Below, in pieces: positions 3,768 to 61,708 of a stretch of DNA of 64,000 nt (position 1 is its first letter; each line of letters begins with the position of its first letter). The notes under the pieces were generated by a model. That model ran no database searches. It saw nothing but the letters and a program-made list of their open reading frames with translations, and had not been told where the DNA came from. The stretch spans positions 193,722 to 257,721 of the forward strand of contig CADCCF010000005.1 in assembly GCA_902799835.1 (NCBI GenBank), given 5' to 3'. Both the position numbers and the translations under genes were made by a program. The stretch comes from an uncultured Pseudomonadota bacterium. GTDB lineage: Bacteria > Pseudomonadota > Alphaproteobacteria > RF32 > CAG-239.

Positions 3768-3805
3768 TTTTATTGTTTTAAATTTTTTTGAAAGGAAAAA
3801 TAAAT

Positions 3806-4843: not shown

Positions 4844-4915
4844 TTATTGCAATATTTAACAGACAAAGGGCTGCTTTATTAAAAAGCAGTCCTTTGTCAT
4901 AATGGGAGAATTAAT

Positions 4916-9042: not shown

Positions 9043-9043
9043 A

Positions 9044-9787
9044 ATGCCTTTTGACAGTGAAGGAGTATTTTCCCGTTTGCACAACTGGGAAGATGATCGC
9101 ATTAATGATATTGACATTATGTCAGATCGTCATGATGAAGAAGATGACAATTTTGCCGATGGACTGAGCCAGTGTTTGTTGCGCAATGGTCAGATTGCCA
9201 TGAGTGGAAATTTGCACATGGGAGGTTTTCAAATTAAAAGTTTAGCTGAAGGTCAAGCCAACAACGATGCAGTGAACAAAGGACAACTTAACACTGTGCA
9301 AACTACTTTGCAAAATGCCATAAATAGTGCAACAACATCAGCAAGTGTGTTTGTCGGCGATATTAAAACTTCATTACAAACTGCCAATCATGGCAACTGG
9401 CTTTTATGTAATGGACAGGCCGTGAGTCGCACAACATATGCTGACTTATTTGCTTTGTTAGGTGAAAATTTCGGTGCCGGTGACGGCTCAACAACTTTTA
9501 ATCTACCGGATTATCGCGGTAAGTTCTTGCGTGGTTTGGGTGGTGATTCCGAAACCGATATGTATACTACCCAAGCTGAGGGATTGCCTGAAATTAACAT
9601 CGGATATACTGGAACGCAAGGCAATGGTGACCCTGATAGTCCTTGGGATTCTGGTGGGGCTATGTATCCTAGAGCTTCTGAGAACATCTATCGTAGAGCA
9701 TCACAAAGTTCTGCAATATATGGAGCTTCGGAACACGTAACACCAATAAACCAAGCGATTAATTACTTTATTAGAGCAAAGGTATAA
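9044..9787 (+). CDS. Tail fibre protein with a phage tail-collar domain
   Basis: The segment GNWLLCNGQAVSRTTYADLFALLGENFGAGDGSTTFNLPDYRGKFLRGLG is the canonical tail-collar motif. Confidence 0.75.
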   Translation: MPFDSEGVFSRLHNWEDDRINDIDIMSDRHDEEDDNFADGLSQCLLRNGQIAMSGNLHMGGFQIKSLAEGQANNDAVNKGQLNTVQTTLQNAINSATTSASVFVGDIKTSLQTANHGNWLLCNGQAVSRTTYADLFALLGENFGAGDGSTTFNLPDYRGKFLRGLGGDSETDMYTTQAEGLPEINIGYTGTQGNGDPDSPWDSGGAMYPRASENIYRRASQSSAIYGASEHVTPINQAINYFIRAKV

Positions 9788-9791
9788 AATC

Positions 9792-10148
9792 ATGAGCGGA
9801 AGAGTTATCAATAATTTAATCGAAATCAGACAAGGCGACAGCTTTGCCGTGAATTTTCAAATCAAAAACAAGTGCCAACCGGCTGACTTGACCGGAGCGG
9901 TCATGACAATGCAGGTAAGAGATGAGAATAACAACCTGATGTTTACTCTTACCGGAACTGATGTTGATGTTAAAAACGGCAAAATGGCTTTGTTGTTTAC
10001 TCCAACCCAAACGAGTATTCCGGTTGGCGATTATAACACCGATATTCAAATCACCACGGCAGACGGTTCGGTTAACACTATTTTTCCGGCTGATGTTAAT
10101 CAAATCGGCACTTTTAGGATAACCGAGCAGGTAACCACGGGGGCATAA
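9792..10148 (+). CDS. Small beta-rich hypothetical tail protein (118 aa)
   Basis: It sits between the fibre genes and is translationally coupled to them. Confidence 0.3.
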   Translation: MSGRVINNLIEIRQGDSFAVNFQIKNKCQPADLTGAVMTMQVRDENNNLMFTLTGTDVDVKNGKMALLFTPTQTSIPVGDYNTDIQITTADGSVNTIFPADVNQIGTFRITEQVTTGA

Positions 10149-10149
10149 A

Positions 10150-12306: not shown

Positions 12307-12317
12307 GGAGAAAACCA

Positions 12318-12692
12318 ATGGAAATTAAAGTCAAATTAAACAAACCTTATACATTCAAGCAACGAGCTGATTTTATTGTCGAGAATAATCACAACAAAGG
12401 CTATGAAATTAAAGAGGTTGCTGATGGGTTAGAGGCTTGGGGTTTAACGAATGAGGAACAAGAACAAGCTGATTTGGAGAATAAGCAAAAATCTATTCGA
12501 GCTACTCGCAATAGTTATTTGCAAGCAACTGATATTTATATGCTGGTTGACTTTCCCGTCACCGATGTTGAGCGTGAAGAATATAAAGCCTATCGGCAAT
12601 ATTTAAGAGATTATACTTTAGGCGAGGATTGGTGGGAGCAAGAGCCCAAGAGTTTCTCAGAATGGAAGGAGGTGATTATCAATGATGAATAG
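12318..12692 (+). CDS. Tail fibre assembly chaperone (Tfa-like, 124 aa)
   Basis: The C-terminal segment SYLQATDIYMLVDFPVTDVEREEYKAYRQYLRDYT resembles the Tfa family signature (LL..SDW...pD......W..YRq.LRD). It lies immediately after a fibre gene. A GGAG RBS is present. Confidence 0.5.
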   Translation: MEIKVKLNKPYTFKQRADFIVENNHNKGYEIKEVADGLEAWGLTNEEQEQADLENKQKSIRATRNSYLQATDIYMLVDFPVTDVEREEYKAYRQYLRDYTLGEDWWEQEPKSFSEWKEVIINDE

Positions 12693-12879
12693 TGAAATTA
12701 TCCAGGATACCAAAGTTGTCGGTTCGGCCGCTTTTGCTTGTGCTCTTGATTATGCGCAAATTTGCAATCAAATGATAACACTTGCCATCAGCATATGTAC
12801 TTTTGTTTATGTTGCCGCCAGGGCATATCAAACAATAAAAGCTTTACGTAAACCTTTCAAAAAGAGGAGACGTAAATGA
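12682..12879 (+). CDS. Holin candidate (65 aa, one TM, highly basic C-terminus)
   Basis: A GGAGGTG RBS precedes it. It has a hydrophobic core (ITLAISICTFVYVAA) and a KKRRRK tail. It overlaps the endolysin start (ATGA). Confidence 0.45.
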   Translation: MMNSEIIQDTKVVGSAAFACALDYAQICNQMITLAISICTFVYVAARAYQTIKALRKPFKKRRRK

Positions 12880-13346
12880 TAGATTTATATACTGTTTCTC
12901 AAAGATTAAAACTTCACGAAGGGCTGCGTTTGCAGCCCTATCGTTGTATAAAGGGCAAACTTACCATCGGGGTGGGGCGTAATTTGGATGATAATCCTTT
13001 AACTCCGGAAGAAGAAAAAATTGTGGGTGATTGGCGTCATGGTATAACCAAAGAAGCTGCAATATATTTGTTGCGCAATGATATCAAATCGGTTTATCGT
13101 GATTTAAAAAAATATCTTCCCTTTTTTAAGGAGTTAGATGAAGAACGACAATATGCATTGATTGATATGGCATTTAATTTAGGTATTGTCGGTCTCCTGA
13201 AATTTCAAAAAATGTTAGCTCATATTGCTTGTGGCAATTATGAACAAGCCGCTGATGAATGCTTAAACAGTCGTTATGCCAAAATTACCGGACGTCGTGC
13301 TGAGCGTATAGCTGAAGTCATACGCCACGGAGTATTCAAGTTATGA
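12876..13346 (+). CDS. Endolysin, GH24 (T4/P22-type) lysozyme
   Basis: The N-terminal segment LKLHEGLRLQPYRCIKGKLTIGVGRNL matches the catalytic motif of GH24 lysozymes (EG.RL..Y.D..G..TIG.G). The Asp position is substituted by Cys. Confidence 0.85.
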   Translation: MIDLYTVSQRLKLHEGLRLQPYRCIKGKLTIGVGRNLDDNPLTPEEEKIVGDWRHGITKEAAIYLLRNDIKSVYRDLKKYLPFFKELDEERQYALIDMAFNLGIVGLLKFQKMLAHIACGNYEQAADECLNSRYAKITGRRAERIAEVIRHGVFKL

Positions 13347-13471
13347 GATGTCTTAAAATCGTTGTCTGGATTTTGGCAGTTATTGCGGTGGGTGTCATGT
13401 TGTGGCGCTCACCGCAATACGCTTATTCAGCGGCACAATCTTTCGTTCTTTTATTGGAGCAAAATATATGA
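13343..13471 (+). CDS. 42-aa single-TM peptide (MRCLKIVVWILAVIAVGVMLWRS...), below the ORF-track size cutoff; possible antiholin or second holin
   Basis: Its ATG overlaps the endolysin TGA (ATGA at 13343-13346). Its own TGA overlaps the Rz-like ATG (ATGA at 13468-13471). It has a strong hydrophobic helix. Confidence 0.3.
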   Translation: MRCLKIVVWILAVIAVGVMLWRSPQYAYSAAQSFVLLLEQNI

Positions 13472-13665
13472 AAGTCAGAGTATTCGTTTATGCCGGTTGT
13501 CTGCTGTTTGCCTATTATCTGGGTTATGCGCAGGCCAAAGTGCAAATAGTGGAAAAACAAGTTGAGGTAATTAAATATGTTCAAACTAAACAAAACCAAA
13601 TTTTATCTGCCCCTCCTGCTTCTAAGCTTGAGTTGCTTGAGCTCATGCGTCGCGGGAAACTATAA
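13468..13665 (+). CDS. Rz-like inner-membrane spanin (65 aa): N-terminal TM plus coiled coil
   Basis: It begins MKVRVFVYAGCLLFAYYLGYA (TM) and continues with a charged helical segment. An Rz1-like lipoprotein ORF is embedded in its +1 frame. Confidence 0.45.
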   Translation: MKVRVFVYAGCLLFAYYLGYAQAKVQIVEKQVEVIKYVQTKQNQILSAPPASKLELLELMRRGKL

Positions 13666-13798
13666 TTATTGTCCGACTTATCCAAATGCTGGCGAAAAAG
13701 TTGCGCAAAGTATTGAACAAATCAATGCGCCGGAATTCTGGGAGTGGTTGGCGCGCATCAACAAACTGCGTCAACAATTAGAACTATGTCAGAAATAA
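13577..13798 (+). CDS. Rz1-like outer-membrane lipoprotein spanin, overlapping the Rz gene in another frame
   Basis: It has a signal peptide with lipobox LLSLSC/LSSC. A Cys-containing mature part is followed by a helical C-terminus. The embedded architecture is characteristic of Rz/Rz1 pairs. Confidence 0.5.
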   Translation: MFKLNKTKFYLPLLLLSLSCLSSCVAGNYNYCPTYPNAGEKVAQSIEQINAPEFWEWLARINKLRQQLELCQK

Positions 13799-13823
13799 TT
13801 TTTTTTATAGAAAGGAGAAAACA

Positions 13824-14015
13824 ATGGACATCCATCCTAAAAACATCTCACCGCTGGGCTACCAAACCGGTGTTGGCGGCATTGATAGTTATGGTGTTAA
13901 TCATAACGGATTTACCAATCAAGATGAGATTGCCTATCAAATGGCTCGCTCAAAACGTGAACAAGATTTGATAAAGCAATATAACGCTCAAGGTATTACT
14001 TCCAACTATCCTTAA
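13824..14015 (+). CDS. Conserved N-terminal module ORF (63 aa), MDIHPKNISPLGYQTGVGGIDSYGVNHNGF...; same frame as the next ORF, separated from it by one TAA
   Basis: A strong RBS (AAAGGAGAAAACA) precedes it. A near-identical N-module recurs at 15467. The downstream in-frame sequence still reads like protein. Confidence 0.4.
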   Translation: MDIHPKNISPLGYQTGVGGIDSYGVNHNGFTNQDEIAYQMARSKREQDLIKQYNAQGITSNYP

Positions 14016-14096
14016 ATCATACCACCAAATTTTTGGGGCAATTCCGCCAATAACTATGGTTTTGGAAATTCTAATATTTCTGCGAATATTGAGAAT

Positions 14097-14690
14097 ATGC
14101 AAAATAACACAACCCCGATACCGGTGGCGACAGCAACGCCGCAACAACAAGCTCAACAGCAACCAAAATCAAATGCTTGGAATATTGTTAAACAGCTTGG
14201 AAATAACTTTGCCGATGCAACTGAGGCCGGAGTTGTAGGTTATGCCACCGGAGCAAGTTTAGGTAATTTTGATGAGGCTATGGGCGGAGCAGCAACGGCA
14301 TTTGGAGTTGATTATAAAGGAGCAAGAGATGCCGTCCGTCAGCTTCAAAATAATTTAAGTCAGCAACATCCGTATGTTTATGGTGCAGGTGAATTTGCCG
14401 GTGCAATGACCACTCCGATGCATTTGGTAAAAGATAACACCTTCGCCAATAAAGCTTTAAATGCGGCAACAGATACCTTAAATGCTTCCACAGGCTATGC
14501 TGAAAATTGGAATGATTTTGCTACCAATTTATTGGTAAACGGAATTGCTAATATTGCAGGATTACCAATAGATAAAATTCCATATACACGTGGAGGTAGT
14601 GTCGTTGGGCGCAAATTTATCAAACAAGGGATTAATTCTGTTGCAGATAAGCTAAAAAACATATATTATGTTGATGAAAATGAAAGATAA
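14097..14690 (+). CDS. Gly/Ala-rich 197-aa protein; candidate toxin or bacteriocin-like body (function unknown)
   Basis: It has a Gln/Pro/Thr-rich N-terminus. Gly/Ala-rich hydrophobic stretches follow (VVGYATGASLGNFDEAMGGAATAFGV, YGAGEFAGAMTTPMHLV). Two small 3-TM paralogs lie directly downstream. Confidence 0.35.
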   Translation: MQNNTTPIPVATATPQQQAQQQPKSNAWNIVKQLGNNFADATEAGVVGYATGASLGNFDEAMGGAATAFGVDYKGARDAVRQLQNNLSQQHPYVYGAGEFAGAMTTPMHLVKDNTFANKALNAATDTLNASTGYAENWNDFATNLLVNGIANIAGLPIDKIPYTRGGSVVGRKFIKQGINSVADKLKNIYYVDENER

Positions 14691-14711
14691 TATATAAAAA
14701 AGGAACAAAAT

Positions 14712-15044
14712 ATGGAAAAAAAGGCCACAAATGGAATCATAAAGACTCTTTTTTATAAAGGAATTGATTTTGTACTTAGTGTGTTAGTTGCATTTGGAAT
14801 TGTTGCGCTGGTAGAAATACATTTTATGGCACCTTTTTTTCCTATTTTGTTCCTTTTGGATTTGTGTCTTATAGCTGGATATCCGTTGTTTTTACGATAT
14901 GTATTAAAAAAGAAATGGTTTGAATGTTGCAAAGATAAATTGTTACAGATAAAATATATATTATTACCTATATTGTTTTTAGAAATATTAGTATTGTTTG
15001 TGATTATAATATGTTATCCAAATGAAATATTGCAAGCTTCATAG
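14712..15044 (+). CDS. Small 3-TM membrane protein (110 aa), immunity-protein-like; paralog 1
   Basis: Three predicted TM helices. It shares the motif PLFLRYVLK[KR]KWFEC.KD..L.IKYILLP with the next ORF. Confidence 0.5.
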   Translation: MEKKATNGIIKTLFYKGIDFVLSVLVAFGIVALVEIHFMAPFFPILFLLDLCLIAGYPLFLRYVLKKKWFECCKDKLLQIKYILLPILFLEILVLFVIIICYPNEILQAS

Positions 15045-15071
15045 ATAAAAAACACAACAAAAAAACAGAAT

Positions 15072-15416
15072 ATGGAAAAAGAGACTATAATAAAAAGAAT
15101 AAAAAAGATAGCATCAGAAGCAATAACTGATGTTATTTGTGTATTGGTTTTATGTGGCTTGATGATTATTTTGGTATTTCATAAATTTGGCCCCCTTTTT
15201 CCTGTTCTGTTCTTGTTTGATTTTTGTTTTATGGTCGGACACCCGTTGTTTTTGCGATACGTTCTCAAACGAAAATGGTTTGAATGCACGAAAGATAATT
15301 TTTTAAGGATAAAATACATCTTGCTTCCATGGTTGATTATGGAACTTTTAGTTTTGTTATATTATCATAAGGTAACATTTTTTATCATCAAAACTGTTAT
15401 GGAAAATAGTAATTAA
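15072..15416 (+). CDS. Small 3-TM membrane protein (114 aa), immunity-protein-like; paralog 2
   Basis: A tandem duplicate of 14712-15044 with the same topology and the same conserved motif. Confidence 0.5.
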   Translation: MEKETIIKRIKKIASEAITDVICVLVLCGLMIILVFHKFGPLFPVLFLFDFCFMVGHPLFLRYVLKRKWFECTKDNFLRIKYILLPWLIMELLVLLYYHKVTFFIIKTVMENSN

Positions 15417-15466
15417 CAAACTGAAAAAATATCAGTATTGATAAAATATAACGAAAGAACAAAACA

Positions 15467-15685
15467 ATGGATATCTATCCTCAAAATATCTCGCCGTTAG
15501 GTTACCAAACCGGACAAAACGGTATCGACAGTTATGGTGTCAACCATAGCGGATTTTCTCTTAGCATCGTAATAAATATAAATAATCCAATGAGTTTCAG
15601 AAATAAAAAAAGCATTACTGATTTAACTCTCAGTAATGCTTTTTTTATATTTAGCAAATTTATTTTGACAATTTCTATATTTTAG
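15467..15685 (+). pseudogene. Orphan or truncated copy of the N-module seen at 13824; it diverges after about 30 aa and runs into a terminator hairpin
   Basis: It begins MDIYPQNISPLGYQTGQNGIDSYGVNHSGF and then loses similarity. The reading frame continues through the palindromic terminator at 15611-15642. Confidence 0.4.
15605..15647. terminator. Perfect 10-bp-stem hairpin flanked by an A-run and a T-run (bidirectional intrinsic terminator); copy 1 of a 41-nt repeat
   Basis: The sequence is aaaaaaagcattactgatttaactctcagtaatgcttttttt. An identical copy lies at 19271-19313. Confidence 0.6.
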
Positions 15686-15919
15686 AATAGCCTGAACTTG
15701 CATTGGTTGATTACCGATGTGAGGTTTGAAACCCTCTTTTCAGGTTATCTGTTAAATCAGATGTAAAAAACTACCTTTTTGCTTTTACGGCAGGAAGGTA
15801 GTTAATAAGATGTATTTTTATATCAAATAAACTACACTATTTCCTGAAAATAGGTTTCAACTTCCTGCCACCTCTCATCAAGGTGGTTTTGTTTTTTAAT
15901 AAAAGAGGGAAATAGGACT

Positions 15920-16606
15920 ATGAAAAAAATTTGTTTTACAATTATCGTTTTGATGGCATTATCAGGATGTGCTTCTGTGCAAGGTTGGAAATATACTGCA
16001 GAACCAAAGATATATAAAAAGCAAGATTTAAATTTAACAATAGCTGTACCTTCACTAAGAGATGAACGCATTAATGAAAATAATGCATTTAAAGCATCAG
16101 GTTGGCTAGCATTAATACCATTGGTTCCATATAGTACGCAATCCGAGTTTAATGTTCCAGAGGCATCACCATTCTTGAATTTTAAACCGACAGAAGATTT
16201 TTCAAAAGCAATTACAGAGGAATTGCAAAATTCTTCAATTTTTAAAGAAGTTTACTATTCAGATCGAACAAAAGATGCTGATTTAATTTTATCTGGAACA
16301 TTAAAAGAATCTCACATAAAGAAATCATGGACATTTTATGGATTATCATTACCAGGAGATTTGTTGTGGTTGTTTGGTGCACCGACAGGCTGGGCAAATA
16401 ATAATATAGTTATTGAATATAAATTAATGGATCAAAATTACAAAATATACTTCGAAAAAACTTATACGGCAAATGTTGAGTTTTACAACAGGTATTGGAC
16501 TAATCCGCACGAAATATTTCGCTTTGAATCAACTCTCAAAAAAATATCTTTAGAATTAGTTGATGATATAAAAGCTATAATTCAACAATTACCAAAGAAT
16601 TTGTAA
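15920..16606 (+). CDS. Lipoprotein of unknown function (228 aa)
   Basis: It has a signal peptide with lipobox LSGC (MKKICFTIIVLMALSGCAS). An AGAGGGA RBS precedes it. A structured leader with a hairpin plus T-run lies immediately upstream. Confidence 0.55.
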   Translation: MKKICFTIIVLMALSGCASVQGWKYTAEPKIYKKQDLNLTIAVPSLRDERINENNAFKASGWLALIPLVPYSTQSEFNVPEASPFLNFKPTEDFSKAITEELQNSSIFKEVYYSDRTKDADLILSGTLKESHIKKSWTFYGLSLPGDLLWLFGAPTGWANNNIVIEYKLMDQNYKIYFEKTYTANVEFYNRYWTNPHEIFRFESTLKKISLELVDDIKAIIQQLPKNL

Positions 16607-16751
16607 TTACAGCAAATATCCATAATCTATTCACAACTCAAAATTGTAACAACATTATAAAAGGGAACTTATATTTCTTATTTATATTCAACCCAAGAGC
16701 TTTGTTTTTTAACAAGGCTCTTTTTTTTATAACTAACTGAAAGGAGAAAAA

Positions 16752-16877
16752 ATGAGTAAAGCAATCGGTAAAGCATTAGGTGCGGGAATAGTTGCACCTT
16801 CCGTTTATGGTACGGAAACTAATATACAAAATTACTTAAATCAATTTAATCAACCGCAAATTGACAATAATTTATGA
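16752..16877 (+). pseudogene. 41-codon leader that duplicates the N-terminus of the tail fibre at 8143; ends at an in-frame TGA
   Basis: A strong AAGGAGAAAAA RBS precedes it. Its product is MSKAIGKALGAGIVAPSVYGTETNIQNYLNQF. The tail fibre begins MSKAIGKALGAGGASTSVYGSESNILNYLKNY. The TGA at 16875-16877 is in the same frame as the GH108 ORF. Confidence 0.45.
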
Positions 16878-16886
16878 TTACAAGCA

Positions 16887-17537
16887 TTGCAAAATCAGAT
16901 GTTGCAACAGCAATCCGCGGGCGTTAATCCTTGGCAACAACAATATAATGCTTTGTTGTTACAAACTTTGCAAAATCAAATACAATTAAAGCAACAGCCA
17001 GTCGATTATTCATTATATGGAACTGATTTTAGTAAAGAATTTATCGATCAAATGCTAGGTGATAATGATTATCAACGCGCATTACAAGAATATGCAATTC
17101 CTAATGAAAAAGGTTATGTAAATAATATAAATGATCCGGGCGGAGAAACCAATATGGGAATATCTAAACGTTATCACCCTAATGAAGATATTAAAAATTT
17201 AACCAGAGAAAGAGCTAATGCTTTGTTATATAATGAAGTGTGGAATTGGAATGGTATCAACAAACTTCCTCGTGAAATAAGAGGATTTGTATTTGATCAT
17301 GGTATCAGAACAAGTCCTCAAAATGCTATTGAAACGACGCATCGAGCATTAGGAATTAATCCGGTTGGTGATATTATTGGTGATATAACATTAAATCTTC
17401 TGCAAAATACGAATTATGAGGATTTTTTACAAAAATACCAAAATCTTGTGAGAGAACAAGATAAGAATAATGCCAACTATAATTACTTTGGCAATGGTTG
17501 GAATAACAGAACAAACGGTTACCATATCTCTTATTAA
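16887..17537 (+). CDS. GH108-family (phage muramidase-like) domain protein
   Basis: The motif EKGYVNNINDPGGETNMGIS matches the GH108 catalytic signature EGGY..D..D.GG.T..GIT. The ORF tool starts it at a TTG. It is in frame with the fibre-like leader upstream. Confidence 0.55.
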   Translation: MQNQMLQQQSAGVNPWQQQYNALLLQTLQNQIQLKQQPVDYSLYGTDFSKEFIDQMLGDNDYQRALQEYAIPNEKGYVNNINDPGGETNMGISKRYHPNEDIKNLTRERANALLYNEVWNWNGINKLPREIRGFVFDHGIRTSPQNAIETTHRALGINPVGDIIGDITLNLLQNTNYEDFLQKYQNLVREQDKNNANYNYFGNGWNNRTNGYHISY

Positions 17538-19270: not shown

Positions 19271-19313
19271 CAAAAAAGCATTACTGATTTAACTCTCAGT
19301 AATGCTTTTTTTT
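19271..19313. terminator. Copy 2 of the 41-nt palindromic hairpin; bidirectional terminator
   Basis: It is identical to 15605-15647. Confidence 0.6.
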
Positions 19314-52137: not shown

Positions 52138-54726
52138 ATGAAAAAACAAGCAGAACCATCCGATCCTTTGGATAGCTTGATTAAACGCGTTAAAGCAGCG
52201 CAACAGATATATAAAAACTTTTCACAAAGTCAGGTTGATGCCATTTTTAAGGCAGCAGCCGCGGCTGCTGCTGCTCAGCGCATACCTTTAGCCCAAATGG
52301 CAGTTGGTGAAACCCGTATGGGCTTAGTTGAAGACAAGGTTATCAAAAATCATTTTGCTTCAGAATATATTTATAACAAGTATAAAGATGCCAAGACTTG
52401 CGGTATTATCAAGACGGATAAAACCAACGGAATTAAAATTTTGGCTGAACCTTTAGGGGTTATCGCCGGTATTGTTCCAACCACCAATCCGACCTCAACT
52501 GCCATATTTAAGTCATTGCTTTGCCTGAAAACCCGCAACGGCATTATCTTCTCACCGCATCCGCGCGCCAAAGACAGTACTATTGCTGCCGCTAAAATTG
52601 TCTATGATGCGGCAGTTAAGGCCGGTGCTCCTGAAGATATTATCGCTTGGATTGATGAGCCGACCTTAGAGGCAACCCATTTTTTGATAACTCACCCTGA
52701 TGTTGATTGTATTTTGGCAACCGGTGGCTCCAGTATGGTTAAGGCTGCTTATTCGTCAGGCAAACCGGCTTTAGGTGTTGGTGCCGGCAATGTTCCGGTA
52801 GTGATTGATGAAACAGCCGATATTGATATGGCGGTTTCCTATATCTTAATGTCCAAAACCTTTGATAATGGTGTGATTTGTGCTTCGGAACAGTCTGTTG
52901 TGGCTGTTGGCAAAATATATGACAAAGTCAAAAAGCAATTTGCTGCCCAAGGTGCTTATATCCTAAAACCATCTGAGGTTAAAAAATTGTCTAAAATAAT
53001 GTTGGGTACCAAAGGGGTAAATCCTTTGATAGTAGGTCAACCGGCTGGCAGAATTGCTGATATGGCCGGGTTGAAAGTTCCTGAAGGTACTAAAATTTTG
53101 CTGGTTGAGCAAGATGTCATATCCAAGGACAATCCTTATGCTTTGGAAAAACTATCTCCTGTGTTGACGATATATCGTGCTAAAAATTTTGAAGTAGCGG
53201 TTGATAAAGCACTTGCCTTGGTTGCATTAGGTGGGCTTGGTCATACTGCTGTGCTCTATACTGACACGCGCAGTCAGGATAGGGTGGATTATTTTGCCCA
53301 CAAACTTCCGACCGGACGCATTTTGGTCAATTCGCCTTCATCACAGGGTGGAATAGGGGATTTATTTAACTTTAGACTTGAGCCTTCATTGACTTTGGGT
53401 TGCGGTTCCTGGGGTGGCAACTCAGTCAGTGAAAATGTTGGTATCAAACATTTATTGAATTATAAAACCGTTGCCGAGAGGAGAGAGAATATGTTGTGGT
53501 TTAGAGTTCCGCCCAAAATTTATTTCAAACGAGGGGCGGTTGATACGGCTTTACGAGAACTCAAAGATAAAAAACGCGCTTTTATCGTAACTGATAAATT
53601 TTTGTTTGATTCCGGTGCTGTTAATACTGTTTCTAATCTTCTAGAAGAAATGGATATTGAATACCAGATTTTCTTTGACGTTAAATCTGATCCGTGTATT
53701 TCTACCATTGAAGATGCACTCAAAGCTATTAAAGTATTTAAGCCTGATGTATTTATCGCTTTTGGCGGTGGTTCACCGATGGATGCTGCCAAAATTATGC
53801 AGCTCAAATATGAACACCCTGAAGTATCTTTTGAGGATGTAGCTTTGCGTTTTATGGATATCAGAAAGCGGATTTGTTCCATTCCTGCTTATTCCAAATC
53901 CATGATGGTCGCCATTCCCACAACTTCGGGTACCGGATCGGAGGTAACTCCTTTTGCAGTTATTACCGATGACAAGAGCGGTATAAAATATGCTCTGGCT
54001 GATTATGCCTTAACTCCTGATATGGCGATTGTTGATGCTGATTTTGTTGATAATATGCCCAAAGGTCTGACCGCAGCCGGTGGTATTGATGCCCTTGTGC
54101 ACTCAATTGAGGCCTATGTTTCGGTTATGGCAACCAACTTTACCAATTCAACAGCTTTGGAAGCGGCTAAACAAATATTCCGTTATTTGCCTCGTGCTTA
54201 TAAAGAAGGAGTTAATGATCCGATTGCTCGAGAAAAAATGCATCATGCCGCCACCATAGCCGGTATGGCTTTTGCCAACTCATTTTTAGGATTGTGCCAC
54301 TCCATGGCGCATAAATTGGGTGCAACTTTTGATATTCCGCACGGAATTGCCAATGCCTTGCTCATTTCACAGGTTATCAAATACAATGCCGATGAAACCA
54401 AGCATAAGCAAACTATCTTCCCGCAATATCGTGTACCCGAAGCAAAAAAGCGTTATGCCCAAATTGCTGAAAATTTGGGTCTGAAAGGTCGTAATGATGA
54501 TGCCAAAGTCAAAGCTTTGATTGCGGCAATCGAGAAATTGAAAAAAGACATTGAAATACCGTCATCAATCAAGGCATGGGGTATATCCAAAAAGGATTTT
54601 GCCTATAAACTTGATTGGTTGGTTGAGAATGCCTTTGACGACCAGTGCACCGGTGCCAATCCGAGCTATCCTCTGATGGAAGACATTCGTCAGATTTACT
54701 TAGATGCCTTTGAGGGTAAGATCTAA
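52138..54726 (+). CDS. adhE: Bifunctional acetaldehyde-CoA/alcohol dehydrogenase
   Basis: An N-terminal ALDH domain and a C-terminal iron-containing ADH domain are present (GGGSPMDAAK). Length 862 aa. Confidence 0.9.
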   Translation: MKKQAEPSDPLDSLIKRVKAAQQIYKNFSQSQVDAIFKAAAAAAAAQRIPLAQMAVGETRMGLVEDKVIKNHFASEYIYNKYKDAKTCGIIKTDKTNGIKILAEPLGVIAGIVPTTNPTSTAIFKSLLCLKTRNGIIFSPHPRAKDSTIAAAKIVYDAAVKAGAPEDIIAWIDEPTLEATHFLITHPDVDCILATGGSSMVKAAYSSGKPALGVGAGNVPVVIDETADIDMAVSYILMSKTFDNGVICASEQSVVAVGKIYDKVKKQFAAQGAYILKPSEVKKLSKIMLGTKGVNPLIVGQPAGRIADMAGLKVPEGTKILLVEQDVISKDNPYALEKLSPVLTIYRAKNFEVAVDKALALVALGGLGHTAVLYTDTRSQDRVDYFAHKLPTGRILVNSPSSQGGIGDLFNFRLEPSLTLGCGSWGGNSVSENVGIKHLLNYKTVAERRENMLWFRVPPKIYFKRGAVDTALRELKDKKRAFIVTDKFLFDSGAVNTVSNLLEEMDIEYQIFFDVKSDPCISTIEDALKAIKVFKPDVFIAFGGGSPMDAAKIMQLKYEHPEVSFEDVALRFMDIRKRICSIPAYSKSMMVAIPTTSGTGSEVTPFAVITDDKSGIKYALADYALTPDMAIVDADFVDNMPKGLTAAGGIDALVHSIEAYVSVMATNFTNSTALEAAKQIFRYLPRAYKEGVNDPIAREKMHHAATIAGMAFANSFLGLCHSMAHKLGATFDIPHGIANALLISQVIKYNADETKHKQTIFPQYRVPEAKKRYAQIAENLGLKGRNDDAKVKALIAAIEKLKKDIEIPSSIKAWGISKKDFAYKLDWLVENAFDDQCTGANPSYPLMEDIRQIYLDAFEGKI

Positions 54727-54729
54727 TAA

Positions 54730-54768
54730 AAAAAGGTTCTTCAAGTTTCAACTTAAAGAACCTTTTTT
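54730..54768. terminator. Bidirectional terminator hairpin (AAGGTTCTT...AAGAACCTT motif)
   Basis: A 17-bp imperfect inverted repeat is flanked by A-runs and T-runs. Confidence 0.6.
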
Positions 54769-54770
54769 AG

Positions 54771-55283
54771 TTAGGGTTTGATAAAACGGCGAATTTTTGC
54801 TTTCAATTCACCACGTTCAAACGAGGCTTCGACATTTCCAGCCATTTGGCACATTTTGATGGTGTAGTAGGGATAGCATCTCCGTACTCCCGAATAATCC
54901 ATCAATGTGTGATACAAACCTGACAGTGGTATTCCGCCAACATGCTCAATTAACTTGTTCAGCGGAGAAATAATAGAGCCTAATCTCCTGAAGTCGTCCA
55001 AGGAAGGAACTTCATCTTTGGCACTTTCTTTCATAACCACCACATCAGTTTCACCCAATTCAAGATATCTTTCGTCATCTTTGAACGGGAATACGCCAAC
55101 CACATCAAGCTTGGTATTAGCATCGTTAACCGGAAGTCGACACACCTTATCTTTAACGCGTACCGCCAGATCAAACTTTTCATCAGGCGGTATTTTTCTC
55201 AGTGCTTCGGCAATATCTTTCAGTGATATGCCGTTATAGCACATTACCCTTGCTACCGAGTAGCAAATTGATGAGTTATTCAT
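54771..55283 (-). CDS. Unknown-family protein P1 (170 aa); conserved G[VI][FY]PFKD[DE]E core
   Basis: One of three tandem paralogs. Confidence 0.5.
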   Translation of the reverse strand: MNNSSICYSVARVMCYNGISLKDIAEALRKIPPDEKFDLAVRVKDKVCRLPVNDANTKLDVVGVFPFKDDERYLELGETDVVVMKESAKDEVPSLDDFRRLGSIISPLNKLIEHVGGIPLSGLYHTLMDYSGVRRCYPYYTIKMCQMAGNVEASFERGELKAKIRRFIKP

Positions 55284-55305
55284 AACGATATTTTTTTATT
55301 GGTTA

Positions 55306-55833
55306 TTATTCACGTTTGATAATGCCACCATAGCGGACCAAGGCCGGAGCCTTGTTGCCGGTTACTCGTGCGTTATAGGCAACATCTTTTGTCATCTCCA
55401 CCACCATGGGTATGGCAAAGCCTTCTACCGGATGAACATGGTATATGCCCTCGATTTTGGGCATATTAAGCTTGGCTAAGGCGTTGTTGAGATCCTGGCG
55501 CACCTCGCTGATCCGTTGCATAAACTCAATCTTGGGCAGACGATCAATGTCACATTGATCATTGCGCTGATAGGTTTCTTGCGTCGCGATGTAACAATCG
55601 CTATCCTTAAACGGGCAGATGCCGATAAGCTCCACTCCGGTAATATCCGTACTAAACGGTACTCTCATCAGCGTATCGTCTTGGTCTTTAACAACCAAAT
55701 CAAACTGCACTGATGCCGGCATGGCCTCGAAATGTTTCATAACGTCGGGAATCGACAAACCGTTTTCGCACAAGGATTTGACAATTGCATCTATGCCGTC
55801 ATACTTACCTTGCATTAATTTATACTTTTCCAT
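55306..55833 (-). CDS. Unknown-family protein P2 (175 aa); same family
   Basis: It is a paralog with the motif IGICPFKDSD. It has its own TTGACA-N17-TATTAT promoter upstream. Confidence 0.5.
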   Translation of the reverse strand: MEKYKLMQGKYDGIDAIVKSLCENGLSIPDVMKHFEAMPASVQFDLVVKDQDDTLMRVPFSTDITGVELIGICPFKDSDCYIATQETYQRNDQCDIDRLPKIEFMQRISEVRQDLNNALAKLNMPKIEGIYHVHPVEGFAIPMVVEMTKDVAYNARVTGNKAPALVRYGGIIKRE

Positions 55834-55935
55834 AATTATAAAAATTAAAAATTAAAAACTGAAAAGATAATATATCTTTATAAAATTTTGTCAAATAAAA
55901 AAGGTTCTTTAAGCGAGCTTAAAGAACCTTTGGGG

Positions 55936-57069
55936 TCATTGATGTTTCAAATGAATGGAGGTAATATACTCTAATTTACCATCGATAAATTGGTATTTCT
56001 TTTTTCCCAAATCCCAGTAATACCTGACATTTTTGGGGAAATTTTCAGCATCTTCGGGGGCAATGTCTTTTGTGGTTGCCTCTCCAAAGAAATGATGACA
56101 GATATCATTTCGAAAAACGAAGTATCGCCCTCGCAACGGATGCGCCTCGATTTTTTCTAAGGCCGAGTTTAGTAAAGATAGCACCTCATTAAAACGATCC
56201 ATGTCGCTTCTTTCCATCGAATCAGCAATGCCATCGGTGGTGCCGTATAAATACTCGTTTACATCCAAAGCTTTGTCCTCATCTTTGAAAGGATAAAGAC
56301 CAATGATGCGATCCTTAGCAAAGCTCTCGCGCTTGGCAAAGGGTACTCTGGCTAATTCACCGTTTTCCTTCACCATCAACAAATCAAGCGTTGCCTCAAA
56401 TGGCGTAACCAGTCCCATACCGTGTTTGATATCATACAGCGCTATCCCATATTCCACCATCAGATTGACAATTTCAGAGAGAGCATCTTCTTTTTTGATA
56501 TCAAAAGGTTGCACCTCAATGGTTTTGCCCTGATAGGGGGAAAGATAGTTTTGCGGTTTCATATACCGACGAACCATCGGGGAATGCCAATCAAGGTAAT
56601 ACATGTCAGTGCGCCAATTAAATGTAGCTATTGCCCTATAGCTTCCGATGCCGCGAACAACATACAGATCATTGTAAGGCTTAGCTGCAATATTTTTGAG
56701 TGCGACATTCAAAGGGGTAAGGACTTGATTAATCCGCTTAAATGCATGCTCATCAGGAATGTCTTGATTACCTTTTCCGCCCCATATGTCAGTCCATGGA
56801 AAAATGTTATAAACTGAATGATGTTTTTCTTCCAGTTCCAGAAAACATTCATCTTCTTTGAACGGGTAGATACCGATCACATCATTGCGATTAACACTCG
56901 CAACCTTGAGTGTTGGCACTCTTCTGACATACCCATTTTGATCTTTGACTGCCAGGTCAAACAGCCTTTCAGCCGGCATAGTTGACAACTGTTTTTCAAT
57001 CTCCGGTACCGAAATACTGCTACTACACATCAACTCAATGACTCTTTTAAAAGCATTTTGTGTTTCCAT
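55936..57069 (-). CDS. Unknown-family protein P3 (377 aa); tandem two-domain fusion of the same family
   Basis: Two repeats of the domain are present (VIGIYPFKEDE, IIGLYPFKDED). Promoter and terminator modules are duplicated with it. Confidence 0.5.
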   Translation of the reverse strand: METQNAFKRVIELMCSSSISVPEIEKQLSTMPAERLFDLAVKDQNGYVRRVPTLKVASVNRNDVIGIYPFKEDECFLELEEKHHSVYNIFPWTDIWGGKGNQDIPDEHAFKRINQVLTPLNVALKNIAAKPYNDLYVVRGIGSYRAIATFNWRTDMYYLDWHSPMVRRYMKPQNYLSPYQGKTIEVQPFDIKKEDALSEIVNLMVEYGIALYDIKHGMGLVTPFEATLDLLMVKENGELARVPFAKRESFAKDRIIGLYPFKDEDKALDVNEYLYGTTDGIADSMERSDMDRFNEVLSLLNSALEKIEAHPLRGRYFVFRNDICHHFFGEATTKDIAPEDAENFPKNVRYYWDLGKKKYQFIDGKLEYITSIHLKHQ

Positions 57070-57180
57070 AATTGTAATATTAAAAATTAAATAATTGAGC
57101 GTATAATATAACTTTATAAAATTTTGTCAAATAAAAAAGCTCCGCTGTTTTATGCGGAGCTTAATAAAAGCAAATTTAGC

Positions 57181-57720
57181 TTAAAATTGCTCTTGCAATT
57201 CAAAGAAATATGCTTGCGGGTGATCGCAAACCGGACATTTTTCAGGAGCTAAAGGCGATTCAACTCTTGCTCCGCAATTAGCACATTCCCAAATAACTTT
57301 AGTTGGACGTTTGAAAATATTGCCCTCAACCAATGATTTTAACAAGGCTTGATAACGTTCTTCATGGCCTTTTTCAATTTTGCCAACCATTTCAAACAAT
57401 TCGGCAATGCGATCAAAGCCTTCTTCTTTGGCTTCTTTAGCCATACGAGCATACATGTTGGTCCATTCAAAATTTTCACCGCCGGCAGCATCTTTAAGGT
57501 TGTCGATAGTGGAGGGAACTGCGCCGTCATGTAACAGCTTAAACCAAATTTTAGCATGTTCTTTTTCGTTATTGGCTGTTTCTTCAAATTTGGCGGCAAT
57601 AATATTGTAGCCCTCTTTTTTGGCTTTGGAGGCATAATAAGTATATTTGTTGCGCGCTTGCGACTCTCCGGCAAAAGCTTCCATTAAGTTTTTTTCGGTT
57701 TTTGATCCTTTTAATTCCAT
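57181..57720 (-). CDS. rbr: Rubrerythrin (ferritin-like diiron domain plus C-terminal rubredoxin-like CxxC...CxxC)
   Basis: [24 protein letters not shown] is present. Helical Glu/His ligand motifs are present. Confidence 0.85.
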
Positions 57721-57867
57721 GGTATTTCTCTTTCATTTAAGTAGTTAACAATCTGTATATTTGTAAATTTTTACAATTTTGTCAATAATTTTGTTTTAAA
57801 ACTTGACTTTTGTTGATTAATTGATATTATGCGCGTCATACCACTAACAAAAGAAAGGTTTAAGGTT

Positions 57868-58782
57868 ATGGAACAGAAAAACGGCAATGTTACAGCTTTT
57901 CCTTTTACGCAAAAGGTTATATCCATTGATGCTGTAAAGATTGGCAATACACTTCCTTTTTCTTTGCTTTGCGGACCTTGCCAAATTGAGAGCCAGCAAC
58001 ACGCAATTGATATTTGCGGTGCAATGGTCGAAATCACTAAAGACTTGGGTATTCCTTATGTCTTCAAGGCCTCATTTGACAAAGCCAATCGCTCTTCCAT
58101 TAAGGGAGCTCGCGGTGTCGGATTGGAAAAGGGGATGGAAACCTTTGATGAAATCAAAAAACTTTATCCCAATTTGCCGATTGTCACCGATGTGCACGAA
58201 ACTTGGCAGTGTGCAGAGGTAGCACAACATGTTGATATGTTGCAGATTCCGGCATTTTTGTGCCGGCAAACCGATTTGTTAGTGGCCGCTGCCAAAACCG
58301 GCAAAATAATCAATATCAAAAAAGGACAATTCCTGGCTCCGGAAGATATGAAAAATGCTGTTCAAAAATGTGTTGATTCCGGCAATAGTCAAGTTTGTTT
58401 GACTGAACGCGGAACTTCTTTTGGCTATCATACCTTGATTGTCGATATGACCGGATTTGCCACTATGGCCAAAACCACCGGTTGTCCGGTAATATTTGAT
58501 GCCACTCACTCGGTGCAAAAGCCGGGTGGTTTGGGTACTGCTACTGGAGGTAATCGCGAAATGGCTCCGATTTTGGCTCGTGCCGCTATTGCCGCCGGTG
58601 TGGGTGGGTTGTTCATGGAAACTCATGAAAATCCCGATAAGGCCTTATCAGATGGTCCTAATACCATTGCATTATCTAACATGAAGTCAATTTTGGCATA
58701 CTTAAAAGAATATGATATGTTGACCAAATCCAAAATTAATGATTATTACCAAGAATGCGGTTTATTGACGAAGGCTATATAA
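57868..58782 (+). CDS. kdsA: 2-dehydro-3-deoxyphosphooctonate aldolase (KDO8P synthase)
   Basis: GIPYVFKASFDKANRSS, LQIPAFLCRQTDL and VIFDATHSVQ are present. Confidence 0.9.
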   Translation: MEQKNGNVTAFPFTQKVISIDAVKIGNTLPFSLLCGPCQIESQQHAIDICGAMVEITKDLGIPYVFKASFDKANRSSIKGARGVGLEKGMETFDEIKKLYPNLPIVTDVHETWQCAEVAQHVDMLQIPAFLCRQTDLLVAAAKTGKIINIKKGQFLAPEDMKNAVQKCVDSGNSQVCLTERGTSFGYHTLIVDMTGFATMAKTTGCPVIFDATHSVQKPGGLGTATGGNREMAPILARAAIAAGVGGLFMETHENPDKALSDGPNTIALSNMKSILAYLKEYDMLTKSKINDYYQECGLLTKAI

Positions 58783-59485: not shown

Positions 59486-61708
59486 ATGGCGGAAACGCAA
59501 GAAAAAATCAAAGAAGTCTATCTCAAAGAGGAACTTAGTTCTCGCTATCTTTCATATGCGATGTCGACAATTGTGTCGCGTTCTCTGCCAGATGTCAGAG
59601 ATGGCTTAAAGCCGGTACACCGTCGCTTGTTGTATGCCATGCGTCAATTACATCTTGATCCCAAATCCGGTTTTAAAAAATGTGCTCGTGTGGTTGGTGA
59701 TGTTATCGGTAAATATCACCCGCACGGAGATTCATCGGTTTATGGTGCCATGTGCCGTTTGGCGCAGGATTTTTCGGTGCGTTATCCTTTGGTTGATGGA
59801 CAAGGTAACTTTGGTAATATCGATGGGGATTCACCGGCTGCCATGCGTTATACCGAAGCGCGTATGACCGAATTTGCTGTTAGCTTGATGGACGGATTGA
59901 GCGAAAATGCCGTTGATTTTATTGATACTTATGATGGTGAAGAACAAGAACCGGTTGTGATGCCGGCAGCGGTACCCAACTTGTTGTGCAATGGTTCCAA
60001 TGGTATTGCAGTTGGTATGGCTACCAACATTCCTCCGCATAATTTGGCTGAAGTTTGTGACGCTTTGTTATTGATGATAGATAAGCCGGAAGCCACGGTC
60101 GAAGCTTTGGTACGCAAACTCAAAGGTCCGGATTTCCCTACCGGAGGAGTGATTATTGATAAATTTTCTTCCATTGTTGATATTTATACTTCCGGCAAAG
60201 GTAATTTCAGAGTTCGCTCTAAGTGGCATAAGGAAGATTTAGGACAGGGACAATACCAAATCGTAGTTACCGAAATACCCTATCAAGTCGTCAAGTCTAA
60301 ACTTATTGAACGTATTGCTCAGTTAGTTTTAGATAAAAAAATTCCTCTGCTCAGTGATGTCAGAGATGAATCGGCTCAAGATATTCGTATAGTTTTAGAG
60401 CCCAAGAGCCGCAATGTCGATGCCAATATTTTGATGGAAATATTGTTCAAAGAAACTGAATTGGAATCCAAGTTTAACATGAACATGAATGTGCTTGATT
60501 CCGAAGGGGTTCCAAGGGTTATGAGTATTGCTGATGTTTGTCGGGAATATCTCAATCATCGTGTCAAAGTTTTGGAGCGTCGTTCCAATTATCGTCTGCA
60601 AAAAATTATTGCTCGTTTGGAGATTTTGTCGGGTTATCTCGTTGCTTATCTCAATTTGGATGAGATTATCCACATTATCCGCGAAGAGGATGATCCCAAA
60701 GTAAAACTGATAAAAAAATTCAAACTCAGTGATATTCAGGCAGAATCAATCCTCAATATGAAGTTGCGTAATCTTCGCAAATTGGATGAAGCTGAAATTA
60801 AAAGTGAGTTTGAAGATTTAACAGCAGAAAAAGCTTCATTGGAAGAGCTGTTAGCCAGTGATGAATTGCGTTGGCGCAAGATTGCCGAAGAAATTAAAGC
60901 TGTCAAAGATAAATTTGGCAAAAAGACGGCTTTAGGCGCTCGTCGCACTGAGTTTGCCGAAGTTAATTTGGAAGATATTGACATTTCAATTGAAGCCCGT
61001 ATTGAGAAAGAACCTCTGACCATTATATTATCGCAAAAAGGATGGATCAGAGCCATGAAGGGCTATCAGCCTTTGGATGATGACTTCAAGTTTAAGGATG
61101 ATGATAATCTGTTGTTGGCAATTCATGCCCAAACTACCGACAAAATAGTTCTGTTTGATACATCAGGCAAGTTCTTCAATATTAATGCCTGTGATATTCC
61201 GACCGGTCGCGGTTTTGGTCAACCGTTGCGCCTGATGATTGATGTCGGGGTAAATGATCAAATTGTTGATATGTTTGTTTATACTGCCAAAACGAATTAT
61301 TTGATAGCATCCAATTCCGGTTATGGTTTTATTATTGATGATAATCACTTGTTGGCGCAAACCAGACAAGGCCGTCGCATTATGAATGTTGCAGAAAATG
61401 AACGTGCGGCTTTTTGTTGTCCGGTCAATGGGGACATGGTTGCCTTTATCGGGGACAATCGTAAGATTTTGGTTTGCCGCTTGGAAGAGGTTCCGACAAT
61501 TGCGCGTGGACGGGGAGTTTGCCTGCAAAAATACAAAGACGGTGGTTTATGCGATATACAAATTTTCAATGAAAAAGATGGTTTCTGTTTTAATCGTTCC
61601 GGCGGTAAAGCTGTTGAAACCAATCTGATAAATTGGTTGGGACATCGTGCCGGTCAGGGAAAACTTGCCCCCTTTGGGTTTCCCAAATCAGGTAAATTCT
61701 TGAAATAA
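59486..61708 (+). CDS. parC: Topoisomerase IV subunit A (GyrA-family fold; 740 aa is ParC-like length)
   Basis: The N-terminus reads YAMSTIVSRSLPDVRDGLKPVHRRLLYAM with an active-site Tyr region. It lacks the long GyrA C-terminal extension. Confidence 0.75.
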   Translation: MAETQEKIKEVYLKEELSSRYLSYAMSTIVSRSLPDVRDGLKPVHRRLLYAMRQLHLDPKSGFKKCARVVGDVIGKYHPHGDSSVYGAMCRLAQDFSVRYPLVDGQGNFGNIDGDSPAAMRYTEARMTEFAVSLMDGLSENAVDFIDTYDGEEQEPVVMPAAVPNLLCNGSNGIAVGMATNIPPHNLAEVCDALLLMIDKPEATVEALVRKLKGPDFPTGGVIIDKFSSIVDIYTSGKGNFRVRSKWHKEDLGQGQYQIVVTEIPYQVVKSKLIERIAQLVLDKKIPLLSDVRDESAQDIRIVLEPKSRNVDANILMEILFKETELESKFNMNMNVLDSEGVPRVMSIADVCREYLNHRVKVLERRSNYRLQKIIARLEILSGYLVAYLNLDEIIHIIREEDDPKVKLIKKFKLSDIQAESILNMKLRNLRKLDEAEIKSEFEDLTAEKASLEELLASDELRWRKIAEEIKAVKDKFGKKTALGARRTEFAEVNLEDIDISIEARIEKEPLTIILSQKGWIRAMKGYQPLDDDFKFKDDDNLLLAIHAQTTDKIVLFDTSGKFFNINACDIPTGRGFGQPLRLMIDVGVNDQIVDMFVYTAKTNYLIASNSGYGFIIDDNHLLAQTRQGRRIMNVAENERAAFCCPVNGDMVAFIGDNRKILVCRLEEVPTIARGRGVCLQKYKDGGLCDIQIFNEKDGFCFNRSGGKAVETNLINWLGHRAGQGKLAPFGFPKSGKFLK

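Follow-up and report, generated by a model that had tools for sequence, protein, structure and literature searches.

The 64,000-nucleotide stretch of DNA analysed here (the window) belongs to contig CADCCF010000005.1 of an uncultured alphaproteobacterium and carries, between adhE and the rubrerythrin gene rbr, an array of three genes, P1, P2 and P3, that encode four copies of a protein unit matching no model in the family libraries searched. P1 and P2 consist of one unit each and P3 of two, and all three genes lie where the original prediction had placed them. The array, its regulatory sites and its immediate flanks comprise the following features, numbered from the first letter of the window.

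52138-54726, plus strand: adhE, conserved convergent flank, outside the array.
54732-54765, no strand assigned: family-type hairpin between the convergent P1 and adhE genes, kept in the related loci L001, L003, L025 and L026.
54771-55283, minus strand: P1, 170 amino acids (aa), a single unit, 22 nucleotides (nt) downstream of P2.
55306-55833, minus strand: P2, 175 aa, a single unit; the protein whose structure was modelled.
55827-55903, minus strand: copy B of a 77-nt repeat, with T-tract, P2 promoter, AT-rich leader and ATGGAAA start.
55867-55894, minus strand: promoter of the P2-P1 operon, TTGACA-N16-TATTAT, 11 of 12 matches to the sigma-70 consensus.
55900-55931, minus strand: family-type terminator hairpin after P3, AAAGGTTCTTTAAGC/GCTTAAAGAACCTTT, 14 pairs, its T-tract running into the P2 -35 element.
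55936-57069, minus strand: P3, 377 aa, two units.
55936-56502, minus strand: C-terminal unit of P3, aa 190-377 plus stop, beginning D-I-KKEDAL.
56503-57069, minus strand: N-terminal unit of P3, aa 1-189 including the 17-aa linker QNYLSPYQGKTIEVQPF, delimited from the unit alignment; it shares 66% identity with its orthologue in L011.
57063-57139, minus strand: copy A of the 77-nt repeat, with T-tract, P3 promoter, AT-rich leader of about 27 nt and ATGGAAA start.
57103-57130, minus strand: P3 promoter, TTGACA-N16-TATTAT, 11 of 12 matches to the sigma-70 consensus.
57137-57162, minus strand: intrinsic terminator hairpin of rbr from the terminator scan, 9 pairs, 6 of them GC.
57181-57720, minus strand: rubrerythrin (rbr), conserved flank, outside the array; Pfam families were seen for its orthologues.

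The four units of about 170-190 aa (P1, P2 and the halves of P3 split at residue 189) align over their full length with pairwise identities of 19-28% and share the invariant positions P, D-L, R.P, G..PFK, E, LN, Y and R. Against a profile built from 120 family members, P1, P2 and P3 score at E values of 1e-46 to 1e-54, and the same profile finds no further copy in the window. Alignment and profile thus agree with the original prediction of four copies of a domain of about 170 aa in three genes, with P3 as a fusion. The first motif given for that domain, [LI]S[IV]P[DE][IV], holds for P2 and the first unit of P3 but not for P1 (ISLKDI) or the second unit of P3 (IALYDI). As the 22-nt gap between P2 and P1 contains neither a promoter nor a terminator and P2 has no terminator of its own, the array forms two transcription units and not three: P3 alone, and P2-P1 sharing one promoter and one terminator.

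Each of these transcription units begins in the 77-nt direct repeat and finishes at a AAGGTTCTT..AAGAACCTT hairpin. The repeat copies are 83% identical and contain an exact block of 28 nt, CTTTATAAAATTTTGTCAAATAAAAAAG, at 55876-55903 and 57112-57139 (two copies, 0 expected), which bears out the earlier claim of a common upstream unit. Both promoter hexamers proposed with it are present, but the consensus scan places them 16 nt apart and not 17. Sites with 11 of 12 consensus matches number three in the whole 64 kb, two of them being the promoters of P3 and of P2-P1. The hairpins occur exactly twice, at 54733-54764 and 55901-55930 (0 expected), so that the terminators described as following each unit are real and unique, but P2 is not followed by one. 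The hairpin between P1 and adhE works in both directions as a terminator and thus serves adhE too. Upstream, the T-tract of the rbr terminator leads directly into the -35 element of the P3 promoter, a layout shared by L003, L011, L025 and L026. In all related arrays the unit boundary consists of a hairpin (the rbr terminator or a family GGTTCTTTAAG..CTTAAAGAACC hairpin) followed by TTTTTTAT(T)TGACAAAA, a TATTAT-like -10 element and an AT-rich leader that lacks a Shine-Dalgarno sequence. When the window and 29 further loci (L001-L029; about 290 kb altogether) were scanned with a regular expression for the T-tract/-35 motif TTTTTTAT(T)TGACAAAATTTT, it was found only upstream of family units. That the junction DNA is about 83% identical and the adjoining coding units only about 25% suggests either selection on the junction or its repeated copying. 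The duplicated promoter-terminator modules of the original prediction are therefore present, with a junction conserved in every related array, but their duplication is old.

No Shine-Dalgarno sequence is recognizable before P3, P2 or P1 (57070-57102, 55834-55866 and 55284-55305, respectively). The AT-rich leaders of the three genes share a recurring TTTTTAATT motif, and the start of rbr is preceded by AAAGAG. A search with Rfam models gave no regulatory RNA in the leaders; the only match was to GcvB at 57131-57258 on the minus strand (26.7 bits against a gathering threshold of 42, E 0.004), which overlaps the 3′ end and terminator of rbr and is taken as chance.

The family to which the units belong is narrow. 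P1, P2 and P3 match no model above threshold in Pfam, NCBIfam, PHROGs or PADLOC, in keeping with the earlier description of the family as unrecognized, and Pfam likewise gives nothing above threshold for 47 family members or for 20 more. A word-indexed search of 5.8 billion proteins returned 17 relatives and later 35, and an exhaustive profile search of 1.84 billion cluster representatives returned 124 at E ≤ 1e-3 and 78 at E ≤ 1e-10, a family size of about 124 clusters at 50% identity. All members are unnamed metagenome proteins except two, which are labelled hypothetical proteins of Alphaproteobacteria metagenome-assembled genomes (MAGs). Among GTDB genomes, relatives occur in two, the rumen ‘uncultured proteobacterium’ RUG10873 and a ‘uncultured Alphaproteobacteria bacterium’ from the Hadza gut, and a scan of JGI metagenomes yielded only two loci. 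With a typical member as query, tblastn gave no hits among 50,697 phage or 72,556 plasmid records, and the scan of IMG/VR found no relative.

A typical member is one unit of 160-180 aa. In a few members the N-terminal 35 residues are swapped for three to four transmembrane helices or other extensions, and two-unit fusions have arisen at least twice, once in the P3 lineage (P0018, P0019) and separately in P0130. The consensus reads MK..II..I..LM...GIS..DI ... FDLLC..DG...RLPF..GK...PIGIFPFKD...YLEL.E....R and continues without a break as ......LPT..F........LN..L..L..P.L.G.YFA......NWIV.F........DYY....AK.RY.G. The residues D, R, P, N, G, Y, A and R are almost invariant, and an E is kept in the 47 representative members. 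In the consensus, neither a His, Cys or Ser nucleophile nor a metal site is conserved, so that the proteins would be expected to bind rather than catalyse. P1, P2 and P3 show neither a signal peptide nor a lipobox in their sequences.

Comparison with related genomes shows that the slot between rbr and adhE is stable in its borders and variable in its content. Close relatives keep the genes that flank it, namely a topoisomerase IV/gyrase A-family gene (59486-61708 in the window), recO, kdsA and rbr at one end and, at the other, adhE and an ATP-binding cassette (ABC) transporter gene. The slot holds P2-P1 only (two genes) in L003-L008, P3-P2-P1 as in the window (three genes) in L009 and L010, a P1-type gene and then a fifth-type gene (two genes) in L025, and four single-unit genes in L026. 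In L011, whose upstream side ends at the contig end, P3-like, fifth-type and P1-type genes come before ssb, the gene for a periplasmic binding protein and uvrA, which take the place of adhE. P1-type genes usually lie 6-26 nt after their partner gene. In L001 the P2-P1 pair is accompanied by a 689-aa open reading frame (ORF) and a serine recombinase gene between the P1 terminator and the adhE stop (11181-14094 in this locus of rumen MAG RUG10873); the ORF has no known domain and the recombinase, of 200 aa, consists of Resolvase and HTH_7 domains. A similar recombinase of 201 aa (L002, 12239-12844) lies 1.7 kb from a single family homologue.

In a neighbour-joining tree the array genes fall into at least five paralogue lineages (P2-type, P1-type, P3-N, P3-C and the L026_g2/L025_g2/L011_g2 type), which together fall within a single clade that sits among single-copy outgroup members. 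This topology argues that the expansion is old and lineage-specific and has proceeded by birth-and-death turnover, not by recent duplication. The survey of distribution and copy number that the original prediction had suggested thus yields a narrow family and two to four genes in the slot. P3 carries the traces of its own origin. Its first unit ends in ...VRRYMKP, as free-standing members do, and is followed by the 17-aa linker; the second starts D-I-KKEDAL where free-standing relatives start M-KKEEAL (P0010, P0023), with ATC replacing ATG. These features mark P3 as two once separate cistrons that have become fused. If the window's two 77-nt repeats recombined, precisely P3 and its terminator would be lost, leaving the arrangement of L003.

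The family genes diverge much faster than their flanks. When the window is compared with L001 or L003, identity is 91-100% for the flanking proteins, with ratios of nonsynonymous to synonymous substitution rates (dN/dS) of 0.00-0.10, 83-89% for P2 (dN/dS 0.13-0.20) and 71-72% for P1 (dN/dS 0.20-0.28). The divergence of P1 is unevenly distributed. Codons 1-80 share 94% identity with the P0008 type and have a dS of about 0.3, as in the flanks, and codons 81-170, which encode the lectin-like half described below, are 54% identical to it with a dS above 1.5; against L001 and L003 this half has near-saturated dS and a dN of about 0.39. It is nearer to alleles of another sublineage (64-67%), and no close donor allele for it was found. 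P1 is thus a recombinant mosaic, and the saturated dS of its second half indicates allele exchange rather than point-mutation pressure.

Modelling of one domain, which had been suggested at the outset, gave a confident structure. AlphaFold2 models of P2 reached a mean predicted local distance difference test score (pLDDT) of 80.8 with an alignment of 17 sequences and of 90.8 with 120 sequences (predicted template modelling score 0.78; all five models at 89.5 or above). In the two-unit alignment made for P3, all single-unit homologues fell on the C-terminal half, and the N-terminal half consisted of four sequences. The predicted unit is, with confidence, an N-terminal helical hairpin joined to an alpha/beta domain: three N-terminal helices (residues 2-23, 28-37 and 40-43) are followed by a beta-hairpin (FDL...R.P) and three strands (GIFPF, YLEL and one more), after which come two helices (LP....LN..L..L) and five strands ending at AK.RY. 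With neither model did Foldseek reach E ≤ 1e-3 against the PDB. For the first model, built on 17 sequences, the highest-ranked structure was 8q4e_A, the C-terminal DUF1566 domain of Legionella Lcl (probability 0.80, template modelling (TM) score 0.45, E 0.37), which is missing from the top 50 of the better, 120-sequence model. The best geometric match of the confident model is 8oks_B, the C-terminal tip of Bdellovibrio Bd2740 (probability 0.77, TM score 0.55, root-mean-square deviation (rmsd) 3.8 Å over 107 columns, E 0.7, which falls short of statistical proof), a domain with a variant C-type lectin fold (PMC10769870). The adhesin InvE also matched the first model geometrically, and mammalian C-type lectin domains appeared lower in the list with poor TM scores. 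Lcl, InvE, Bd2740 and these lectin domains are the only geometrically sensible PDB matches; the PhzG and PNP-oxidase rows, with an rmsd of about 20 Å and probabilities of at most 0.08, are meaningless. Of the predicted viral structures in BFVD, a single one matched significantly, A0A8S5RG01 (358 aa, ‘virus sp. ct5rm7’; E 6e-5, probability 1.0), and a second match, compact, was A0A8S5VLP6 (125 aa; E 3e-3, probability 1.0, TM score 0.66, rmsd 2.8 Å), both of them gut-virus proteins; further matches were to Podoviridae and Myoviridae proteins including a tail fibre, and to herpesvirus and poxvirus C-type lectins. Judged by its predicted structure, the C-terminal domain looks like a calcium-independent recognition domain with a C-type lectin fold.

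This likeness extends to the class formed by Bd2740, the Bordetella phage protein Mtd and the variable proteins of diversity-generating retroelements (DGRs). Shared with this class are the order of elements (a strand, two helices, then four strands), the lack of an EPN/QPD-type calcium motif and the concentration of variability in the recognition half, here that of P1. The calcium and carbohydrate motifs EPN/QPD plus WND are missing from the family consensus; they are also absent from Bd2740 and Mtd and are thus not needed for the fold (PMC10769870). Unlike the members of that class, the family proteins are small, carry no signal peptide, are not fibre tips, and have an extra N-terminal helical hairpin and beta-hairpin. 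Their diversity stems from paralogues and recombination and not, as in DGR targets, from a retroelement: no part of the array is repeated elsewhere in the 64 kb, in which a reverse-transcriptase gene was not searched for, and the saturated dS in P1 points to allele exchange, not A-specific mutagenesis.

Other assignments were also rejected. Membership of DUF1566/Lcl_C (PF07603) was not supported by sequence, with no Pfam match at E ≤ 1 for the three window proteins, the 47 members or the 20 more, or by profile, hhalign of 47 family members against 40 PF07603 proteins giving E 0.15 and a score of 15.5 over 58 columns; a pseudo-consensus DUF1566 query against phages found nothing. The hhalign alignment pairs the family's LPT-helix...G.YFA...NWIV.F with WRLPT-helix...YWSS...AW.V.F, and both families end in a basic strand (..VR.V and ..IRY.G), but the family lacks the hallmark W of WRLPT and the YWSS motif. 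A profile search against PDB sequences gave a borderline hit to the N-terminal 100 residues of EcoRI (E 0.047, 16 bits), in an alignment that includes a shared viGIF...LN.aLk.l pattern. An EcoRI-like PD-(D/E)xK nuclease was dismissed, as no conserved acidic residues align near D91 and beyond and EcoRI is absent from the Foldseek lists.

Elsewhere, family genes occupy unrelated surroundings. They adjoin rpsI-rplM in L012 and L020, tuf in L029, and genes for a LonC-like protease and a tetratricopeptide repeat (TPR) protein in L016-L019, and lie near a resolvase and assorted genes in L002. In L021 and L022, hipBA or helix-turn-helix genes are inserted beside family loci of the rpsI-rplM type: directly downstream of the single-copy family gene lie, in L021, a hipA toxin-kinase gene with a small upstream ORF (3573-4978) and, in L022, an HTH_3 gene (4628-4843). 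The position downstream of the single-copy gene in L020-L022 looks like a hot spot for insertions. A peroxiredoxin is a neighbour in L028 alone. In that locus, two short ORFs (143 and 127 aa; 7894-10408) upstream of a 375-aa transmembrane-anchored member are similar solely to the N-terminal membrane portions of other members, P0108 and P0098 among them, and may be what is left of truncated cassettes, in which case tandem arrays would also exist in the membrane-anchored subfamily.

The interpretation favoured here, to which we assign a probability of roughly 40%, sees in the locus a cassette array that is specific to the lineage and turns over by birth and death, and whose small cytoplasmic products bind other molecules, are not enzymes and have an immunity-like or sensing role. 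In each cassette, one or two genes stand between a near-consensus sigma-70 promoter and a hairpin terminator specific to the family, and the conserved terminator-promoter junction would provide the homology for unequal crossing-over by which cassettes are added, deleted or fused; such crossing-over would account for the two to four genes in the same slot and for the fused P3. Alleles would additionally be reshuffled by recombination, as in the P1 mosaic. To judge from the promoters, the units may be strongly and separately expressed. The N-terminal helical hairpin could act as a module for self- or hetero-association, and the co-operonic arrangement of P2-P1 together with the repeated covalent two-unit fusions argues that the proteins may form dimers or higher oligomers. 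The lectin-fold-like C-terminal part would then present a recognition surface that differs between alleles, and the resulting repertoire of binders may sense or neutralize variable foreign or competitor molecules. A bolder version, which we regard as doubtful, would make the array a new innate repertoire of gut Alphaproteobacteria, in which strongly expressed intracellular lectin-fold binders neutralize incoming toxins or phage proteins. Such a previously undescribed class of immunity or defence proteins, diversified by paralogy, fusion and allele shuffling in place of a retroelement and equipped with a terminator-promoter junction of its own, seems correspondingly improbable.

Close precedents are the arrays of orphan immunity genes against interbacterial toxins, such as the recombinase-associated acquired interbacterial defence clusters of gut Bacteroidales. 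Like these, the family forms arrays of small, divergent, cytoplasmic or membrane-anchored paralogues in a gut habitat, with repeated junctions, strain-variable copy number, tandem fusions and occasional recombinase neighbours (L001, L002), and the tandem divergent paralogues, from two to four genes in the same slot and in at least five lineages, follow the same pattern. Unlike them, the array occupies a fixed chromosomal slot and not a mobile element, it has no recombinase in the window and no match to known immunity families, and no toxin gene or fragment adjoins any family member. Several observations weigh against an immunity-like or sensing role. Neither the window nor L001-L029 contains a toxin or toxin fragment next to a family gene, and across about 10 contexts no toxin, secretion-system or defence gene recurs as a conserved neighbour. 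No component model of PADLOC-DB matched, the profile-profile comparison with DUF1566 is not significant, and searches by sequence in phages, plasmids and IMG/VR gave no homologues. No ligand, partner or phenotype is on record for the family. The dN/dS values are below 1 overall, with no diversifying or positive selection demonstrated, and in other lineages the gene is single-copy and stable beside ribosomal protein genes, which also fits a housekeeping function.

That these are ordinary lineage-specific housekeeping or scaffold proteins under relaxed constraint, with neutral drift of copy number at recombination-prone junctions and no part in conflict, is an alternative of some substance, if on balance unlikely. 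The purifying dN/dS of 0.13-0.28, the presence of at least one P1-type gene in every related array, the orthologues beside rpsI-rplM that stay single-copy and stable across many samples, and a base composition that is not foreign (GC content of 41-46% in the array against 39% in the window, no clear signal of foreign origin) are all consistent with it. The exceptionally strong and conserved promoters, the long retention of five paralogue lineages, the repeated origin of fusions and the allelic mosaic of the P1 recognition half are harder to reconcile with drift and suggest that diversity itself is maintained. A joint role with rubrerythrin and adhE in redox or anaerobic stress, which the original prediction had drawn from the position of the genes, is by comparison a very remote prospect. 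In all close relatives the array does have rbr on one side and adhE on the other, the window proteins contain 3-5 cysteines each, and the distant member in L028 adjoins a Bcp-type peroxiredoxin and a nitroreductase. Nevertheless, the array genes have their own promoters, the rbr terminator separates them from rbr, and adhE is convergent; members outside the clade lie in unrelated contexts (near rpsI-rplM, tuf, LonC-like protease and TPR genes, hipBA, or a resolvase), and the content of the slot itself varies. The family has no conserved cysteine, histidine or metal-binding motif, and no redox fold occurs among the meaningful structural matches, so that the redox reading is not supported.

Two further readings can be set beside these. 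The proteins could be exported lectin-type adhesins or effectors that bind glycans of host, prey or phage receptors, as Lcl, Bd2740 and phage tail-fibre tips do, Lcl being described as extracellular and as binding glycosaminoglycans (PMC11162425). The structural neighbours (Lcl, Bd2740, InvE, tail fibres and viral C-type lectins) are all extracellular recognition domains, the layout of helix plus lectin fold recalls the neck-plus-head of trimeric lectins, a region with phage-like tail and lysis genes lies in the window at about 10-17.5 kb, and lineage-specific, fast-evolving arrays are typical of effectors. Export would have to proceed without an N-terminal signal peptide, through type I, IV or VI secretion, vesicles, or a particle resembling a phage tail or gene transfer agent (GTA); yet the proteins have neither signal peptide nor lipobox, no secretion-system or tail gene adjoins any family member, and the family profile finds no match in the phage-like region. 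In the transmembrane relatives, an even number of helices after a basic N-terminus would also leave the domain in the cytoplasm, and export thus appears improbable. Lower still we place a function as nucleoid-associated modulators, in which the N-terminal hairpin would mimic the central dimerization site of H-NS and co-oligomerize with an H-NS-like silencer. Truncated H-NS antagonists are known to co-oligomerize with such a silencer, and 12 of the 47 members match PF22470 (Histone_HNS_N) below threshold (best E 7e-4), the four matches examined with coordinates covering model positions 54-78, the central dimerization element. All of these matches fall below the Pfam cut-off (at most 19.8 bits against 24.5) and none comes from P1, P2 or P3, the family has no DNA-binding domain, and the transmembrane-anchored relatives lack the hairpin, which is therefore not part of the family core. 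The matches are at most a hint that the hairpin may be an association module, as the cassette-array interpretation supposes.

Outside the array, two regions of the window deserve description. Positions 10150-17537 hold a phage-like tail and lysis region, with repeat features extending to about 19700. One of its products, of 718 aa, carries a Phage_tail_C tip domain and is encoded with at least seven tandem repeats of 33 nt (10303-10580); others are a phage lysozyme (12876-13346) and, at 16887-17537, a GH108 lysin. Direct repeats of 163 nt and 128 nt (74% identical) lie within 13786-15556, a terminator hairpin of 41 nt occurs in two identical copies (15606-15646 and 19272-19312), and a repeat of 50 nt is found at 18619/19629. 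This region may be a prophage or GTA-like cluster with duplicated cassettes of its own. Beside rbr, the kdsA ORF as listed (57829-58782) encodes 317 aa, and its orthologues are of 282-292 aa (L001, L003, L005, L026) or 301-304 aa (L009, L025); as these are shorter, the true start of kdsA is probably further downstream, which would lengthen the divergent rbr-kdsA intergenic region.

The fold class and the evolutionary pattern of tandem paralogues, fusions and allele shuffling are already familiar, whereas the family has no description in the libraries searched and has a distinctive cassette junction. The analysis defines an unnamed family of about 124 clusters at 50% identity with a confident structural model; all of its members that have names are from uncultured Alphaproteobacteria of the gut and rumen. 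The results suggest that a fold whose best-known examples are extracellular adhesins and the receptor-binding tips of phages may also serve inside the cell, and the conserved terminator-promoter junction would offer a simple mechanism for the gain, loss and fusion of cassettes. Even if the proteins are not immunity factors, a misleading redox annotation by association is removed; if they are immunity or defence factors, they would represent a new component in microbial conflict in the gut.

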